Shown in pieces: positions 6,918 through 18,622 of a DNA stretch of 24,645 nt; the stretch's first letter is position 1; every line of letters begins with the position of its first letter. The stretch comes from an uncultured Chloroflexia bacterium. GTDB lineage: Bacteria > Chloroflexota > Dehalococcoidia > UBA2979. The stretch lies in contig CAVSIV010000003.1 in NCBI GenBank assembly GCA_963728205.1, positions 1 to 24,645 on the forward strand, written 5' to 3'. Under the pieces are notes generated by a model that was not told the DNA's origin, did not search any database, and was given only the letters and a program-made list of their open reading frames with translations. The position numbers and the translations under genes were made by a program.

Positions 6918-7085
6918 CTAGCCGCCGCCGGCCGGGCGGGGTGCCCGCTTGCCCGCGCGCAGGCGGCGCTGGTCGCCGACGGTTTCGACGGCCGCTGCGC
7001 GGCCGCCCACGTCCAGCTGGTCGCCGTGGACCACGCAGGTCTTCGCGCTCCCCATGAGGATGCGGCCGCAGCGAGGACAGTTCAC
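6918..7085 (-). CDS. 55-aa Zn-ribbon-like microprotein (CxxC-x10-CxxH)
   Basis: SD-like GGAAGG before GTG at 7085; MNCPRCGRILMGSAKTCVVHGDQLDVGG...; co-directional with and downstream of the RRM gene. Confidence 0.6.
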   Translation of the reverse strand: MNCPRCGRILMGSAKTCVVHGDQLDVGGRAAAVETVGDQRRLRAGKRAPRPAGGG

Positions 7086-7212
7086 GAACGCCACCTTCCG
7101 TCCCGGGAGCCCGCGTCGCACGGCCCCGGAACATCGAGAGCCCGGCCGCACGGCCGGGCTCTCGGGTGTTGTGCTGCGAGGCGAAGGCGCGCCGCGTCTT
7201 CGCCGGGCCGGG

Positions 7213-7536
7213 CTAGCGCCGGTTGTACCCGCCGCCGCCGCCGCCGTAGCCGCCGCCGCCACCACCGCCGAAGCCGCGGCCGCCACCGGCCTCACGGGGC
7301 TTCGCCTCGTTGACGTTCAGCGCCCGCCCGCCGAAGTCCTTGCCGTTGAGCGCCGAGATCGCCTTCGCGGCGTCGGCGGACGACATCTCGACGAACCCGA
7401 AGCCGCGCGGGCGGCCGGTCTCACGGTCCGTCGGCAGCGCGACGGACATCACTTCGCCATATGCGGCGAAGAGCTCCTGGACAGCCCCCTCCGAAGCATC
7501 GAACGGGAGGTTGCCTACATAGATCTTCTGGGCCAA
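7213..7536 (-). CDS. RNA-binding protein (single RRM domain plus Gly-rich tail), cold-inducible Rbp type
   Basis: TTG start after AGGAGTGAAGG; RNP2 IYVGNL, RNP1 RGFGFVEM, LNVNEAKPR, GGGGY tail. Confidence 0.95.
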   Translation of the reverse strand: MAQKIYVGNLPFDASEGAVQELFAAYGEVMSVALPTDRETGRPRGFGFVEMSSADAAKAISALNGKDFGGRALNVNEAKPREAGGGRGFGGGGGGGYGGGGGGYNRR

Positions 7537-7687
7537 GGTGAACCTTCACTCCTCGTCGGCAAGCGCCAACAGACTGACCGGGCCCCGTGCGGGACTCGGT
7601 TCGCGTGGGTCTCAGGCGCGACGTGGAAGCTTGGTGGTGCCACCAGGAGGCGGGCTGAGGGACACGCCGAGTTCGACGTGCCTCATT

Positions 7688-7697
7688 GAGCGTAGCA
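7688..7697 (-). promoter_or_regulatory. Extended -10 promoter (TGcTACGCT) for the RRM gene
   Basis: TGCTACGCTC on the - strand ~150 nt upstream of the start; the same 10-mer lies upstream of the helicase (8780-8789). Confidence 0.55.
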
Positions 7698-7715
7698 CGA
7701 GGCGACCGCTGCGGG

Positions 7716-7886
7716 TCAGCGCGGCTTGCCCGCGGCCGCGGCGCGCCACGCGGCGCGGCGGTCGGTGTCCAGGAAATCGCGCTCGGCGCCGCAGCGCTTG
7801 CACACCGCAGCCGTCGCTTCACGCGCCGGCGCGCCGAGCATCCAGTGGTGCGCGCACGCGTCGACAATCGGGTCGGGGTCCGCCAT
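7716..7886 (-). CDS. 56-aa metal-binding microprotein (CxHHW...CxxC), absent from the ORF track
   Basis: GAGG SD and ATG at 7886; MADPDPIVDACAHHWMLGAPAREATAAVCKRCGAERDFLDTDRRAAWRAAAAGKPR*; high GC3. Confidence 0.75.
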   Translation of the reverse strand: MADPDPIVDACAHHWMLGAPAREATAAVCKRCGAERDFLDTDRRAAWRAAAAGKPR

Positions 7887-8148
7887 GGCTGCCTCGCTCT
7901 GCCCGGCGCCGCCGCGCGCGAACGCGCACGTCGCTCACGCCCGGCACACCCACGGTACGCCCTCGGCTCGCCGTGGTCTGCCCGTCGCCGCGCCCGGCGA
8001 GCGCCGCCCCGGCCGATCCGGGAGGTGCTACCGTGAGCGCACCGTGTGCCGCGTGCACCCGCACGCGCCCCGCGCCTCCGCCTCCCTCGTCCCGGGTGAG
8101 CACGGCGCGCTGCCCGCACTCGCGAACTTGCTGGAGGCACACGCCACC

Positions 8149-8514
8149 ATGACCTCATCGGGCACCCACGCATCGGGGTCGATGCGCTTCCAGCTACACG
8201 AGGTCCTCTCGGGCATGCTCGCCTCGATCTCGGCGAATTCGTTCACCGACGACCCCGCCCGGCTCGCCGCGATGTTCGAATCGCTCTCCGGCCAGTTCGC
8301 GCTCTTCGCCCCGTTCCAGTCGGGCGTCGACGCCGACGCGGTGGACGCGGCACTGCAGAAGCTCGCACAGCAGCACGTCATCGAGCACGGCGACGGCGGG
8401 TACACGGTGACCGCGGAGGGCCTCGCGCACTGCGTCAGCAGCAAGCGCACGCTCTTCAACCAGGGCGACCGCGAGCAGCTCGAAGCCGCCGCGGTCGTCT
8501 TCGACACGCTCTAG
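8149..8514 (+). CDS. Hypothetical protein, possible winged-helix-like C-terminal half
   Basis: SD GGAGG and ATG at 8149; coding-like codon usage; helix plus hairpin pattern VDAALQKLAQQHVIEHGDGGYTVTAEG. Confidence 0.75.
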   Translation: MTSSGTHASGSMRFQLHEVLSGMLASISANSFTDDPARLAAMFESLSGQFALFAPFQSGVDADAVDAALQKLAQQHVIEHGDGGYTVTAEGLAHCVSSKRTLFNQGDREQLEAAAVVFDTL

Positions 8515-8547
8515 GCCGGGGCGGGCGGCGTGCGCGGAGGTCGCGAG

Positions 8548-8730
8548 ATGGACGTGGGGGCGATGGTGCGCCGGCTGATCGGGCGGTTGCGCCCGCCGCC
8601 GCGGGGACCCCGCGGTCCGCGGCCGCGCGGCCGCGGCGAGAGCACCGAGCAGCGGGCGGCGCGTCGGTACTGGGACGAGCAGGTCGCCGACGATCACGCG
8701 CGCCGTGGCGTGAACGACAAGCACGCCTAG
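8548..8730 (+). CDS. Small basic hypothetical protein (60 aa)
   Basis: SD GGAGG at 8536-8540 before ATG 8548; MDVGAMVRRLIGRLRPPP...RRYWDEQVADDH. Confidence 0.5.
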   Translation: MDVGAMVRRLIGRLRPPPRGPRGPRPRGRGESTEQRAARRYWDEQVADDHARRGVNDKHA

Positions 8731-8779
8731 CGTCTCGCGCGGGTCGGGGGTTGCCCGACCAGCGCCTGCCGGCGGCGCA

Positions 8780-8789
8780 TGCTACGCTC
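8780..8789 (+). promoter_or_regulatory. Extended -10 promoter (TGcTACGCT) for the helicase, implying a ~255-nt 5'UTR
   Basis: TGCTACGCTC, identical to the element upstream of the RRM gene. Confidence 0.55.
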
Positions 8790-9048
8790 GCAACACCGCC
8801 GGCGGGTTCAGCCCGTGTGGCGCGTCCCCTCAGACCCTCTTCTCGCCACGACCTGACGAACCTCGTGAGCCCGGAAGAGCGCCGCGAACCTCTGCGGACG
8901 GGAACGCCCGTCTCACGCGGCTCATTCTGAGCGGCTCATCGGCACGGAGCCCGCAGGCTGGCGGCTCCACCGTGCTGATCGTCACCCGTCGCCGCGGCGG
9001 CGACACCCTTCCGCCGCGCCCGCCAGCCCCAATCGGAGCGCGTTCCGC

Positions 9049-10485
9049 GTGTCATCCACGGCCGTCCCGGCCTCGTACCCCTCCCAGGAGGATCGCCCCG
9101 CCATCGCCCGCCGCCGCCCGGCATCATCCGCACCGGTGCCGGCGGCCGCCCCCGCCGCCCCGGCCGCCACGGCCGGCTTCCAGGCGCTTGGCCTGCCCGC
9201 CGACCTCGATGCCGTCCTGCAGCGCCTGGGCCTCACCACCCCCACGCCAATCCAGGCACTCACCATCGGCGACGCGCTCGCCGGCCGCGACGTCTGCGGC
9301 AAGGCGCAGACGGGCTCGGGGAAGACGCTCGCGTTCGGCCTGCCGCTGATCGCGCGCACCACGACCGCGCGCCGGCGCCGCCCGCGCGCGCTGGTCCTCG
9401 TGCCGACACGCGAGCTCGCGAACCAGGTCGCCGAAGCCCTCACGCCCTTCGCCGCCGAGCGCGGCCTCTGGCTCAGCACCGTCTACGGCGGGGTCTCGAT
9501 GGTTCGCCAGGTGCGCGCGCTGCAGGCAGGCGTCGACGTCGTGATCGCGACCCCCGGCCGCCTCAACGACCTGCTGGAGCAGGGCGAGCTCTCCGTCGCC
9601 GACGTCGAGTTCGTCGTCCTCGACGAGGCCAATCAGATGTCCGACATGGGCTTCCTGCCGCAGGTCCAGCGCATCCTCGACCGGGTCGAGGGCCAGCCGC
9701 AGACGCTGCTGTTCTCCGCGACGCTCGACGGCGCAATCGGCACGCTCGTGCGCCGCTACCAGCACGACCCGGTGCACCACGCGGTCGCGGCGGCGGTCGA
9801 GTCGACCGACGCCATGGACCAGCGGTTCATCGGCGTCCTGCCGGCGGAGCGCATCGCCGTCACCGCCGCGATCTGCGCGGCGGCCGAGCGGTCGCTCGTC
9901 TTCGTGAGCACGACGCGCGGTGCGGATCGGCTCGCCGAGCACCTCGAGCGCACGGGGCTGCGCTGCGCCGCGATCCACGGTCGGCTCGCGCAGAACCGGC
10001 GTGAGCGCGTGCTCGCGTCGTTCGCCAGCGGCGCGACGCCCGTGCTGATCGCGACGAACGTCGCGGCGCGCGGCATCCACGTCGACGGCGTCGACGTGGT
10101 CGTGCACTACGACCCGCCCGAGGACGCGAAGGTCTACCTCCACCGCTCGGGCCGCACGGCGCGCGCGGGCGACCGCGGACTCGTCGTCACCCTGGCGCAG
10201 CCCGAGCACGAGCGTGACATCACGCGCCTCATCCAGGAGGTCGGCATCGACCACGACATCGTGCGCATGCGCCCGGACGACGAGCGCCTCGCCGACCTCG
10301 CGGCCTGGGAGCCGCCGGCGTCGACGGCGGGGCCGGTCAGCGGGACGTACAGCGTGCGCAAGCAGAACCGCGGCGGCGGTGGCGGCAACGGCGCGCGACG
10401 CGGGGCGCCCCCCGTGGCGCGCCCCGCGTCGCCGCGCTCGCGCACGCCTGCCGGTCGCGCCCGCCGGCGCGACGCGCGCTGGTAG
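9049..10485 (+). CDS. DEAD-box family RNA helicase (RhlE/CshA-like); motif II reads DEAN
   Basis: Q motif PTPIQ, AQTGSGKT, PTRELA, GG, TPGRL, DEAN, SAT, ATNVAARGIH, HRSGRTAR; basic C-terminal tail. Start uncertain. Confidence 0.93.
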   Translation: MSSTAVPASYPSQEDRPAIARRRPASSAPVPAAAPAAPAATAGFQALGLPADLDAVLQRLGLTTPTPIQALTIGDALAGRDVCGKAQTGSGKTLAFGLPLIARTTTARRRRPRALVLVPTRELANQVAEALTPFAAERGLWLSTVYGGVSMVRQVRALQAGVDVVIATPGRLNDLLEQGELSVADVEFVVLDEANQMSDMGFLPQVQRILDRVEGQPQTLLFSATLDGAIGTLVRRYQHDPVHHAVAAAVESTDAMDQRFIGVLPAERIAVTAAICAAAERSLVFVSTTRGADRLAEHLERTGLRCAAIHGRLAQNRRERVLASFASGATPVLIATNVAARGIHVDGVDVVVHYDPPEDAKVYLHRSGRTARAGDRGLVVTLAQPEHERDITRLIQEVGIDHDIVRMRPDDERLADLAAWEPPASTAGPVSGTYSVRKQNRGGGGGNGARRGAPPVARPASPRSRTPAGRARRRDARW

Positions 10486-14609: not shown

Positions 14610-15704
14610 CTAGCCGTACCGGTTCCACGCGAGCGAAAGACCGACCGCCGCCGTCGCGAGCAGGGCGCCCAGCGCGACGAACGCGAAGCTCAGCTCGACG
14701 TGCTCGTGTTGCAGTGTGACCTCGGAGGGGAGGTGGTGGAAGACGTCGACCAGCTCGCTCGCGTCCTGTGCGCGGTGGTACGTGCCGCCGGTGGCGTCCG
14801 CGATGCCCTGCAGCGTCTGCTCGTCGATCAGCAGCGCCGACCGCCCCCCGCCGCCGAAGTTGCCGCCGCCGAAGTTGCCGCCGCCGAAGCCGAAGCTCCG
14901 ACCGCCGCCGGCGAAGCGGCCGCCGAAGACGTCGCCCCCCAGCTGCTGCTGGGAGCACGCGAGCGGCGCGCCCTCCGTCGTCCCGAAACCGATCGTGTAG
15001 ATGCGCACGCGGCGCGCGGCCGCCTGCTGCGCGGCCACCAGCGGGTCGACGCCCTGCGTCGTCGCGCCGTCCGTGAGCAGCACGACAATGTCGGGCTGGT
15101 AGCCGCCGGCCGCCGCCCCGGCCGCGGGCGTCGCGACGTCGAGTCCGGTTCGCGGGACGCCCGGGTTCACCGCCGCGATGGCGTCGACCGCACGCAGCTC
15201 CGCCGTCCCGACGGCCGTACCGCGCCCCGTGGTGAAGCCATCGATCGCGGCGACGAGCGCCTCGCGGTCGGTCGTCGGCGGCACCACCAGCTGCGCGATG
15301 CCCGAGAACGCCACGATGCCGATGCGCGTCCCGGCCGGCTGGTTCCGCACGAAGGTGCGCGCGACGTCCTGCGCGACCGCCAGCCGGTTCGGCGGCACGT
15401 CCGTGGAGCACATCGACAGCGACACGTCGAGCGCGAGGATCACCGTCGTGCGGCTGGTCGGCACGACCACCGACGCCTGCGGCCGCGCGGCGGCGACCGC
15501 GAGGCTCAGGAGCGCGGCGAGGAACAGCGCGAACGGCAGCCGCCGCCGCCAGCGCGACTGCGCCGGCAGCGCCTCGCGGATCAGCGCGAGGCTCGCGTAG
15601 CGCACCGCGAAGCGCCGGCGCCGGCGGCGCAGCAGGAGGTACGCGCCGAGCACGAGGGGCGCCACGAGCAGGAGGAAGAGCGCGGAGGGCCAGGCGAAGG
15701 TCAT
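14610..15704 (-). CDS. BatA-like membrane-anchored VWA domain protein with a Gly/Phe-rich insert
   Basis: MTFAWPSALFLLL N-terminal TMs, LARP-like motif, MIDAS DVSLSM, LLTDG, C-terminal TM. Confidence 0.9.
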   Translation of the reverse strand: MTFAWPSALFLLLVAPLVLGAYLLLRRRRRRFAVRYASLALIREALPAQSRWRRRLPFALFLAALLSLAVAAARPQASVVVPTSRTTVILALDVSLSMCSTDVPPNRLAVAQDVARTFVRNQPAGTRIGIVAFSGIAQLVVPPTTDREALVAAIDGFTTGRGTAVGTAELRAVDAIAAVNPGVPRTGLDVATPAAGAAAGGYQPDIVVLLTDGATTQGVDPLVAAQQAAARRVRIYTIGFGTTEGAPLACSQQQLGGDVFGGRFAGGGRSFGFGGGNFGGGNFGGGGRSALLIDEQTLQGIADATGGTYHRAQDASELVDVFHHLPSEVTLQHEHVELSFAFVALGALLATAAVGLSLAWNRYG

Positions 15705-15706
15705 GG

Positions 15707-16708
15707 CTAGGGGACCCTCCCGAACCAGCGCATCGTGAGACCCGCACCGACGACCAGCAGCAGCATGGCCACGACCGCGACGAGCGGCGTCGCCTCCAGC
15801 TCTTCCCCGCGCACGGCGAGCTGCAGATCGATCCTGCCGTACACCTGCTTGAGCTTCGCCGCGTCCTCTGCCCGGAAGTACGTGCCGCCCGTGGTGTCGG
15901 CGATCTTCGACAGCAGCGGCTCGTTCAGCGCCGTCGCGACCTGGTAGCCCTGGATGTCGAGCGTCGCGCCGTCGGGGCTGCCGAGCCCGATCGGGAAGAC
16001 GCGCACGCCGGCGTTGGCCGCGACCTGCGCGACACCGAGCGGGTCGACGCGCGACGTGTCCTCGCCGTCGGAGAGCAGCACGATCACCGCCGACCCGTAG
16101 TAGCCGATGTTCGTCGAAGCCGGGTCGGGCGCGGCCGTCGCCGTGGCCGTCCCGCTCGCGAGCGCAATCGGGTGGCCGGCGATCGCGCCGAGCGACGAGA
16201 ACATGCCCTCGCTCAGCGAGGTCCCGCCCTGCGGCTCGATGCGGTCGATGGCCGCGAGCACATCGCCCTGGTCGTTCGTCGGCTGCTGCAGCACGAACGC
16301 GCTGTCGCTGAAGGCGACCACGCCGATGCGCACCGACGACGGCTGATCGCGCACGAAGGCGTCGGCGGCCTGCTTCGCCGCCGCCATGCGCGTGGGCGCG
16401 AGATCGGTCGCCTCCATGCTCGTCGAGACGTCGAACGCGAGGATCACGGTGCCCTCGCGGTGGGGGAGGGCGACGACGACGGTGGGGCGTGCGAGCGCGG
16501 CGAGCATCAGCGCGAGCGCGGCGAGGAAGAGCGCGGGCGCCAGGTGACGGCGCCAGGCGGCACGCCGGCCACCGCCGCCGTCGGTGACGCGCAGCGGCCC
16601 GAGCGCGGGCGCGGCCGCGGCGCGCCGCCGCATCAGCCAGACGTAGCCGGCGGCCAGCACGGGCACGAGCAGCAGCGAGAGCAGCATCGCCGGCCACGTG
16701 AACGACAT
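15707..16708 (-). CDS. BatA-like membrane-anchored VWA domain protein
   Basis: MSFTWPAMLLSLL, ALARP, MIDAS DVSTSM, LLSDGE, C-terminal TM; ATG overlaps the DUF58 stop. Confidence 0.92.
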   Translation of the reverse strand: MSFTWPAMLLSLLLVPVLAAGYVWLMRRRAAAAPALGPLRVTDGGGGRRAAWRRHLAPALFLAALALMLAALARPTVVVALPHREGTVILAFDVSTSMEATDLAPTRMAAAKQAADAFVRDQPSSVRIGVVAFSDSAFVLQQPTNDQGDVLAAIDRIEPQGGTSLSEGMFSSLGAIAGHPIALASGTATATAAPDPASTNIGYYGSAVIVLLSDGEDTSRVDPLGVAQVAANAGVRVFPIGLGSPDGATLDIQGYQVATALNEPLLSKIADTTGGTYFRAEDAAKLKQVYGRIDLQLAVRGEELEATPLVAVVAMLLLVVGAGLTMRWFGRVP

Positions 16709-17572
16709 CAGCGGATCCGTCGTTTCCGCTGGCCGGCCATGCGCACGAGCGCCGCGACGAGGTCGTCCTCGGTGGAGAGGTCGAACGGGTCGACGCCGGC
16801 GCGGCGCAGGCTCGCATCGAGCTGCGCCTCGCGCGCGCCGGCCAGCTCCGCGAGCCGGGCGCGCAGCCGCGGGTCGCTCGCGTCGACGAGCAGCTGCTCG
16901 CCGGTCTCGGAGTCCTCGAGCACGATCAGACCGGCGTCGGGCAGCTCGACCTCCCGCGGATCCCACAGCCGGATCGCCACCACGTCATGCCGCCGGCTCA
17001 GCATCGGCATCAGCCGCTCCCAGCCGGGCTCGCTCATGAAGTCGGAGACGACGAAGACCAGCGAGCGTCGCTTGATCGTGTTCAGCGCGACCTGCAGCAG
17101 ACCCGCCAGGTCGGTCGGGCCGTCGCTCGCCGGCGCGGGGCGCATCAGGTCGCGCGCGAGGCGCAGCACCTGGATGCGCCCGCCGCGCGGCGGGATCGTG
17201 CGCTCCACCGCGTTGTTGTAGAGGATCGCGCCCACGCGGTTGCCGCGACGCGTGAGCAGCCGCGCCAGCGCGGTCACCACGTCGGTCAGCACCCGCGCCT
17301 TCGGGCGGTCCTCCGGGCCGAACGCCATCGACGGCGAGCGGTCGAGCAGCATCCACGCCGTGAGCTCGCGGTCCTCGCGGTACTCGCGTACGTACGGCGT
17401 GTCCATGCGCGCCGTCACGTTCCAGTCGATGTGCCGCGCGTCGTCCTCGGGCTGGTACTCGCGTATGTCGGCGAGATCGACGCCCGCACCGTAGAAGAGC
17501 GTGCGGTAGTCGCCCTGCAGCAGGCCGTCGAGCCGCCGCAGCACCTGCCAGTCGAGGCGGTGCAGGATCTGC

Positions 17573-18622
<1,050 letters not shown>

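Follow-up and report, generated by a model that had tools for sequence, protein, structure and literature searches.

In the stretch of DNA analysed here, 24,645 nt long with a G+C content of 73.8% and referred to throughout as the window, a gene for a small RRM protein (rbp) and a gene for a DEAD-box-type RNA helicase are each preceded by an extended -10 promoter element and a long predicted 5' untranslated region (5' UTR, or leader). By sequence comparison with its closest relative, the rbp leader is a putative cis-element that is conserved and partly structured. The explanation that we favour, and that we consider probable, is a lineage-specific conserved rbp 5' UTR of a known kind, with generic cold-shock-type promoters in front of both genes and a helicase leader that is separate and unrelated. 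An earlier note on this DNA had proposed an RNA motif common to both leaders; this, which would have been the most interesting claim, was unsupported by the tests that we ran, and on the sequence comparisons such a motif seems unlikely. Because the likeness of the leaders was no better than chance, the region appears to have an ordinary cold-shock-style layout and not a new shared motif.

The rbp unit consists of the following features, in which L001 is the locus of the closest relative (L001 to L079 being the relatives' loci) and A3 is the alignment of the two rbp leaders.

7213-7536, minus strand: rbp, encoding a 107-amino-acid RRM protein with a glycine-rich tail, TTG start (Pfam, NCBIfam)
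7537-7684, minus strand: predicted rbp 5' UTR, about 147 nt, counterpart L001:7096-7253
7610-7661, minus strand: invariant blocks CCCTCAGCCC (7661 to 7652) and CCACGTCGCGCCTGAGA (7626 to 7610), from alignment A3
7688-7697, minus strand: predicted extended -10 element of rbp, TGCTACGCTC, exact match
7136-7163, minus strand: terminator-like hairpin after rbp, arms GAGAGCCCGGC and GCCGGGCTCTC, counterpart L001:7691-7718

The rbp product carries RRM_1 as the N-terminal domain of a small protein (Pfam, E 6.2e-21, 74.5 bits against a cutoff of 20.7) and reaches the NCBIfam family NF058537, Rbp_regulator, with 100.6 bits against a cutoff of 100. A search of genome contigs with this protein as query yielded 79 loci from many phyla, among which the only close relative was L001, a metagenome-assembled genome (MAG) labelled Chloroflexota with 78% amino-acid identity. 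In L001, rbp has other neighbours, a gene for an acyl-CoA dehydrogenase and a small open reading frame (ORF) in divergent orientation, and lies at a divergent intergenic region without a homolog of ORF56, the small gene upstream of rbp in the window. Although the flanking genes differ, the rbp unit is conserved as a whole from promoter to terminator. The terminator-like hairpins of the window and L001 have identical 11-nt arms and different loops, and a partial, sub-threshold Rfam match to CC0196 was obtained for this hairpin (25.8 bits against a gathering score of 35).

When the L001 leader alone was used as an nhmmer query, it recovered the rbp leader of the window with an E-value of 7.7e-8. 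The two leaders are 65% identical, a value that falls to 54-58% in flanks subjected to the same alignment and to 59% at synonymous third positions, and despite this third-position identity they contain identical blocks of up to 21 nt. The parts kept in L001 are TGCTA, the 5' hairpin, CCCTCAGCCC, the CCGCCTC pyrimidine tract, CCACGT(C/T)GCGCCTGAGA, a hairpin of variable sequence, TGTTGGC-loop-GCCGACG, GCCGACGAGGAGTGAAGGTTC and the TTG (UUG) start codon. The longest conserved block, the 21-nt GCCGACGAGGAGTGAAGGTTC, is the Shine-Dalgarno region; two internal invariant blocks of 10 and 17 nt are distant from both the promoter and the ribosome-binding site, in a comparison in which synonymous sites are near saturation. 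The earlier note had proposed the leaders of relatives as a check on its motif, and in the rbp leader of L001 the hairpin, CCCTCAG and the pyrimidine tract are indeed kept; CGCGAACC, which it had counted as part of the same pattern, is not conserved there.

To place the leader in a wider context, we used a set of 79 usable rbp upstream regions (78 loci and the window; L017 was dropped because of a contig end), each scanned over 250 nt, with start codons taken from automatic assignment, which is uncertain for a few of the loci. Neither nhmmer nor a covariance model matched the rbp leader in the other 77 usable regions, and the regular expression CCYTCAG...CYTGAG, run over the 79 loci, occurred in an rbp leader in L001 only, with six matches elsewhere. 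A cmscan-type comparison with Rfam, proposed in the earlier note as a check, returned no family at gathering score in the whole window and none relevant at E<=10 in 7100-9300, and Chlorobi-RRM (RF01697) had no match at E<=10 in either 7100-9300 or L001:6900-7800. Searches of both leaders against a plasmid collection with blastn gave chance matches only (E>=0.02), located inside unrelated genes. Conserved rbp leaders are common, because 24 of the 79 upstream regions fall into nine lineage-specific similarity groups. Judging by these regions, an extended -10 element, a long leader and lineage-specific conservation of that leader are general properties of rbp genes. Another lineage-specific element was noted in the rbp leaders of L002, L003, L004, L006 and L008 (Steroidobacteraceae, gammaproteobacterial MAGs), which have in common the box CGATCAGGTGACAGGA and variants of it.

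The structure of the rbp leader was compared on alignment A3, that is on two sequences (the window and L001), using RNAalifold and minimum-free-energy (MFE) folds. The predicted helices are as follows.

7656-7685, minus strand: P1, hairpin at the predicted mRNA 5' end, 3' arm CGGCGUG..CCUCA, including most of CCCUCAG (MFE fold)
7610-7661, minus strand: P2, predicted CUCAG/CUGAG helix between the two invariant blocks, no covariation
7577-7600, minus strand: P3, variable sequence with kept structure, 9 pairs of which 4 are changed on both sides, 100% paired
7571 to 7554, minus strand: P4, invariant stem, loop GCUU in the window and UCAG in L001
7553 to 7535, minus strand: P5, GGAG/GAAGG Shine-Dalgarno region paired with the first bases of the UUG start

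In the proposed helices 94.3% of cells are paired; moving the 3' partners along by 1-3 columns lowers this to 33-49%. Five pairs in the whole structure are changed on both sides. In P1 of L001, CACA/UGUG replaces CACG/CGUG with a one-base register shift relative to the invariant CCCUCA. The word CGCGAACC (7605 to 7598) overlaps the 5' foot of P3, and GCCGACGAGGAGTGAAGGTTC is contained in the P4/P5 region (7535-7571). RNAalifold offers an alternative in which the 5' arm of P1 pairs with the second block, with one G:C to A:U change: the 17-nt block has a single substitution, C to U, and it corresponds to the change from G to A in the arm. This hints that the P1 5' arm has two folds that exclude each other, a modelled alternative that is only a lead because it comes from two sequences. 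In a series of folds from 5 to 45 C we saw no cold-specific opening; the predicted unpaired probability of GAAGG went from 0.20 to 0.26 in the window and from 0.48 to 0.64 in L001. Two further candidates for a function of the leader were rejected: a C-rich Rho-loading (rut-like) tract, for which C exceeds G on the leader transcripts but likewise in the adjacent coding sequence, and a pyrimidine tract acting as an anti-Shine-Dalgarno sequence, for which we counted five complementary bases in the rbp leader of the window and four in that of L001, with no convincing complementarity in the DEAD-box leader.

The DEAD-box unit and a third site of the same promoter type lie on the plus strand.

8780-8789, plus strand: predicted extended -10 element of the DEAD-box gene, TGCTACGCTC, exact match
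8795-9048, plus strand: predicted DEAD-box leader, about 254 nt, containing GGCGCGTCCCCTCAGACCCTCTTCT (8819-8843) and CGCGAACC (8883-8890)
9049-10485, plus strand: gene for a DEAD-box-type RNA helicase of 478 amino acids, GTG start (Pfam DEAD, Helicase_C)
8026-8148, plus strand: third predicted extended -10 element, TGCTACCGT (8026-8034), with a leader of about 110 nt before ORF121 (pattern scan)

The identical extended -10 elements that had been reported for the two genes were found as exact matches. We defined the extended -10 element by the pattern TGnTAnnnT; a TGn motif joined to a -10 hexamer is present as TGCTACGCT at 7689-7697 on the minus strand and 8780-8788 on the plus strand, and as TGCTACCGT before ORF121. 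With transcription starting, as we infer from the sequence, about 7 nt after each -10 element, the predicted leaders of about 147 and 254 nt agree with the lengths given earlier (about 145 and 255 nt). The window contains three TGNTANNNT sites (before rbp, ORF121 and the helicase gene) and L001 two, one before rbp and one 34 nt before an amidohydrolase gene, which has a short leader. All five read TGCTA, and every one is non-coding with a gene downstream in the same orientation. At rbp, the alignment of L001 with the window begins at TGCTA, the DNA upstream of it being unalignable, and the L001 site, TGCTAACTT, lies at an equal distance from rbp. The exact 10-mer is not retained in L001, which reads TGCTAACTTC, and as a conserved signal it was rejected, since it is absent from the 79 loci.

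Across the rbp upstream regions, TGNTANNNT occurred on the coding strand in 35 of 79, compared with 11 on the reverse strand and 12.7 +/- 2.9 (maximum 20) in shuffled sequences; these counts are partly dependent, as related loci share sites. The sites read TGC in 22 of 42 cases. Because most of them are positioned at -100 to -170, long rbp leaders would exist in many phyla. A consensus sigma-70 and terminator scan detected neither a promoter nor a terminator, in a search that demands the -35 element which these promoters lack. From these sequences we conclude that the TGCTA element is a generic promoter type of the lineage and not a regulon-specific mark, because all five TGCTA sites precede co-oriented genes and the 10-mer is lost in L001. 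As a separate observation on the amidohydrolase gene of L001, tandem units of about 20 nt (ggaaccggaagcctgaacgg and variants) occupy L001:1-200, from the contig end to the promoter of that gene.

The protein is assigned as a helicase from its Pfam domains, DEAD with E 8.8e-45 and Helicase_C with E 4.5e-28. It has motifs Q, I, Ia, III and VI (located: AQTGSGKT, PTRELA, SAT and HRSGRTARAG), and motif II reads DEAN, not DEAD (residues 192-195, 9622-9633). No helicase subfamily or cold-shock role can be assigned, because the NCBIfam equivalogs (CshA, DbpA, RhlE, CsdA) all score below their own cutoffs. Third-position GC rises at GTG 9049, which supports that start, and because it stays at the level of non-coding DNA up to 9048, 8731-9048 is non-coding. 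A close DEAD-box ortholog is absent among the 79 loci, the nearest being the helicase of L036 at 49% identity. Nothing resembling the DEAD-box leader was found among the 79 loci at E<=0.1, and it matched no Rfam family; in L036 the leaders of the DEAD-box homolog and of rbp resemble neither leader of the window. Other observations on helicase genes near rbp are that one lies within 10 kb of rbp in L036, L071, L016 and L057 (4 of 79 loci), that in L071 (Nitrospira) it is directly 3' of rbp on the same strand, and that the L036 gene has TGCTAGCTT about 180 nt before its ATG.

To assess whether the two leaders are alike, we began from the strings quoted in the earlier note, all of which are in place: GGCGTGTCCCTCAGCCCGCCTCCT at 7668 to 7645 on the minus strand and GGCGCGTCCCCTCAGACCCTCTTCT in the DEAD-box leader, CCCTCAG at 7655-7661 (minus) and 8827-8833 (plus), and CGCGAACC at 7598-7605 (minus) and 8883-8890 (plus). 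MFE folds also place a 5'-end hairpin in each leader, with a 3' arm containing CGGCGUG in the RRM gene or UGGCGCGU in the DEAD-box gene. Both words occur at background frequency in the window (CCCTCAG 4 against 2.97 expected, CGCGAACC 6 against 3.37 expected). The best local alignment of the leaders (score 23) falls outside the quoted motif; 94 of 500 dinucleotide shuffles gave a score as high, as did 75 of 462 segments taken at random from genomic DNA. Only a collinear chain of shared words (10+7+8 = 25 nt) was unusual, being reached in 9 of the 300 shuffles and in 6 of the 376 controls from genomic DNA, in a test run post hoc with the pattern already chosen by eye. Global MAFFT alignment left the shared words unaligned and was discarded as uninformative.

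Profile searches gave the same picture. With an nhmmer profile of the two rbp leaders, 8817-8845 was the top non-self match in the window, yet at E 9.8 (5' half 4.6) and 0.7-2.8 bits; with L001 as the only query, the DEAD-box site had E 180 (5' half 49), below a site in a coding region. The covariance model R1, run with filters off, scored 8815-8922 at 4.5 bits (E 2.4, rank 27 of 89). As queries, the leaders of the DEAD-box gene and of ORF121 gave no match to one another or to the rbp leader at E<=50. When the best ungapped motif common to the rbp, DEAD-box and ORF121 leaders was sought exhaustively, 13-75 of 100 shuffled sets scored as well, and so did 51-87 of 100 triples drawn at random from genomic DNA. 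The ORF121 leader was rejected as a third member, as it has no common motif above chance; its fold reaches z -1.67, a stability equalled by 13 of 200 shuffles. The context of CCCUCAG differs too, being the 3' arm of the terminal hairpin in rbp and, in the DEAD-box leader, a position after the hairpin with pairing about 95 nt downstream. Taken together, these results put the resemblance of the leaders beyond promoter type at a marginal, chance level, and the claim of a common regulatory RNA element is unsupported, since rbp-leader profiles and the covariance model score the DEAD-box leader at background.

The genes between rbp and the helicase gene are the following.

7717-7886, minus strand: ORF56, small CxxC protein, upstream of rbp on the same strand, third-position GC 0.91
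8149-8514, plus strand: ORF121, unknown family, third-position GC 0.93 (translation)
8530-8730, plus strand: ORF66, between ORF121 and the DEAD-box gene

Because of these three ORFs, the earlier description of rbp and the DEAD-box gene as a divergent pair is right in orientation and wrong in adjacency. All three have coding-like third-position GC (0.90-0.93), and none matched a protein family in Pfam or NCBIfam; ORF56 furthermore has no homolog in any of the 79 loci, and the TIGR02647 match of ORF121 is weak (E 0.029, under cutoff). ORF56 and ORF66 end 20-50 nt upstream of same-strand -10 elements (the ORF66 stop is 50 nt before 8780). Downstream of rbp, an ORF of about 56 amino acids at about 6918-7088 on the minus strand has CxxC pairs as in ORF56 and is zinc-ribbon-like. 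Elsewhere in the window, genes for a MoxR-type AAA ATPase, a DUF58 protein and a BatA/VWA protein follow consecutively at 14610-18622 on the minus strand and form an ordinary Bat-like operon.

We weighed the favoured explanation against three others. In one of them, the leaders of rbp and the DEAD-box gene, and perhaps that of ORF121, would carry a cold-box-like element that combines a hairpin at the 5' end with CCCUCAG and a tract rich in C/U; this element would be bound by Rbp or a cold-shock factor, or act as a thermosensor, and would co-regulate the genes. It draws on the identical 10-nt -10 region and on a hairpin ending in GGCGYGU, CCCUCAG and a pyrimidine tract that occur in the same order in both leaders, on the few controls that equal the word chain (9 of 300 and 6 of 376), on the rank of 8817-8845 in the profile search, on the retention of the hairpin-CCCUCAG-CCCCGCCUC module in the rbp ortholog, on the capacity of CUCAG to pair with a downstream CUGAG in both leaders, and on the proximity of rbp and DEAD-box genes (<=10 kb) in 4 of 79 other loci. 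It also has a precedent in E. coli, where overproduction of the csdA 5' UTR derepressed csdA and cspA, a result attributed to Fang et al. 1998 in the excerpted text of bioRxiv 10.1101/2021.03.08.434349. We nevertheless think it improbable, given that the same top match has E 4.6-9.8, and E 49-180 behind a coding site when L001 is the query, that the covariance model ranks the site 27th of 89 (4.5 bits, E 2.4), that 94 of 500 shuffles equal the local alignment and no three-leader motif emerged, that CCCUCAG is inside the terminal hairpin arm in rbp but outside the hairpin in the DEAD-box leader, and that CGCGAACC is lost in L001 and the leader of the L036 DEAD-box homolog is dissimilar. Equally doubtful is its fuller form, in which rbp, ORF121 and the DEAD-box gene would make up a small cold-shock regulon, with a TGCTAC promoter, a 5' hairpin and a CCCUC(A)G tract closed by CUGAG, bound by Rbp and under joint feedback; if true, this would be a new cold-box-like RNA site in a lineage without the E. 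coli-type system. The possibility that the rbp leader is kept for housekeeping signals only (promoter, stabilising 5' hairpin and ribosome-binding site), with no switch, sensing or feedback, has a somewhat better, though still small, chance of being correct. The Shine-Dalgarno region is the longest conserved block, folding energies are no better than those of shuffles, no temperature effect is predicted, and the extended -10 is generic and also drives the L001 amidohydrolase gene with its short leader, all of which would fit. Housekeeping signals would not account for internal blocks of 10 and 17 nt that are invariant while synonymous sites are near saturation, nor for a P3 structure that survives four double changes; moreover, long leaders are general for rbp, and a regulatory contribution was shown in Bacteroides, as stated in the excerpted text of PMC13370968. 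Finally, it is very improbable that the TGCTAC elements are not promoters and that rbp shares a transcript with ORF56 while the helicase gene shares one with ORF121-ORF66, which would make the 'leaders' intercistronic spacers. The ends of ORF56 and ORF66 20-50 nt before -10 elements on the same strands, and the failure of the -35-requiring sigma-70 scan to detect a promoter, are in line with this; in L001, however, rbp has no ORF56 homolog and lies at a divergent intergenic region, yet TGCTAACTT stands at an equal distance, and all five TGCTA sites are upstream of co-oriented genes, with enrichment before rbp generally.

The favoured explanation, a lineage-specific rbp leader beside an unrelated helicase leader, has observations against it as well. 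The covariation rests on two sequences and one ortholog, and 15 of 500 column shuffles equal its five double changes; folding energies are no better than shuffled (z -1.07 for the rbp leader, -0.32 for L001 and -0.80 for the DEAD-box leader). Near-constant predicted accessibility of the Shine-Dalgarno region and of the start codon, with slight opening upon heating, argues against a simple equilibrium sensor that opens in the cold. In addition, all 10 nt of the -10 region agree between rbp and the DEAD-box gene, whereas the sites of L001 and ORF121 deviate at the variable positions; this identity together with the word chain (9/300, 6/376) leaves a weak shared signal unexplained.

The architecture of promoter and leader is of an already known kind; the rbp leader itself is new and lineage-specific. 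As described in the excerpt of bioRxiv 10.1101/2021.03.08.434349, E. coli cspA, cspB, cspG and cspI have a TGn motif and 5' UTRs of 145-161 nt, and csdA has a TGn motif and a 5' UTR much longer than those of the csp genes. As far as that excerpt goes, the genes studied here are like this cold-shock set (cspA, cspB, cspG, cspI, csdA/deaD) in having a TGn extended -10 and long leaders (about 147 and 254 nt predicted), and rbp with its predicted 147 nt has the 5' UTR of about 150 nt behind a TGn promoter that is typical of cspA. An RNA chaperone and a DEAD-box helicase are included in both cases; in the window the chaperone belongs to the RRM proteins instead of the cold-shock-domain proteins, and, unlike in the E. 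coli 'cold box' genes, no sequence element common to the leaders was detected, nor any Rfam match. A 2005 article by Phadtare and Severinov reportedly bears, by its title, on this E. coli cold-shock architecture.

Closer parallels are found among RRM-protein genes. The Chlorobi-RRM motif has been proposed to act by autoregulation. Like it, the rbp leader is a candidate cis-regulatory RNA before an RRM-protein gene, confined to a single lineage, and 7537-7684 on the minus strand occupies the same position, the 5' UTR of such a gene; unlike it, the rbp leader and L001 gave no covariance-model match, and the lineage differs, the nearest relative being Chloroflexota. Chlorobi-RRM (RF01697) is listed as a cis-regulatory candidate in the excerpted text of Weinberg et al. 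2010 (PMC2864571). A long 5' UTR before an RRM-protein gene is also a feature of Bacteroides rbpA/B/C and Anabaena rbpA1, and any function here would be assigned by analogy with them; no sequence similarity to the window rbp leader was seen among the other 77 usable regions. In Anabaena, the rbpA1 5' UTR is said to play a role at low temperature, going by the title of work by Ehira et al. in 2005. For Bacteroides thetaiotaomicron rbpA/B/C, 5' UTRs of 122-155 nt, cold induction and feedback partly via the 5' UTR are described in the excerpt of PMC13370968, where bacterial RRM proteins are presented as emerging cold-shock chaperones and their long 5' UTRs as suspected thermosensors or feedback sites.

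In the explanation that we favour, rbp, ORF121(-ORF66) and the DEAD-box helicase gene would each be transcribed as a unit of its own, three in all. The promoter of each would be an extended -10 TGCTAnnnT without a recognisable -35, the ordinary strong promoter type of the lineage and the same type as is seen at cold-shock genes and at rbp genes of many phyla. The rbp leader would have P1 at its 5' end, CCCUCAGCCC and CCACGUYGCGCCUGAGA, two blocks with the potential to pair either with one another or with P1's 5' arm, then the covarying P3, the invariant P4 and a weak P5 that would cover the Shine-Dalgarno region together with the start codon, a rare UUG. By analogy, this leader would determine how stable the mRNA is and how it is translated, and would be the site at which Rbp is controlled by cold or by feedback, as in cspA and in the rbp genes of Bacteroides and cyanobacteria; the helicase gene would have its own, unrelated long leader. 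The predicted transcription starts follow from the positions of the -10 elements, and any regulatory function of the leaders would follow from comparison with these better-known systems.

These findings add a conserved, partly covarying rbp leader, undescribed in Rfam, from an uncultured high-GC lineage. They further indicate that, in the loci compared here, an extended -10 element followed by a leader of 100-170 nt is a recurrent arrangement before rbp in many phyla. Should the leader prove to be regulatory, it would offer a compact test case with five short elements and a UUG start codon.

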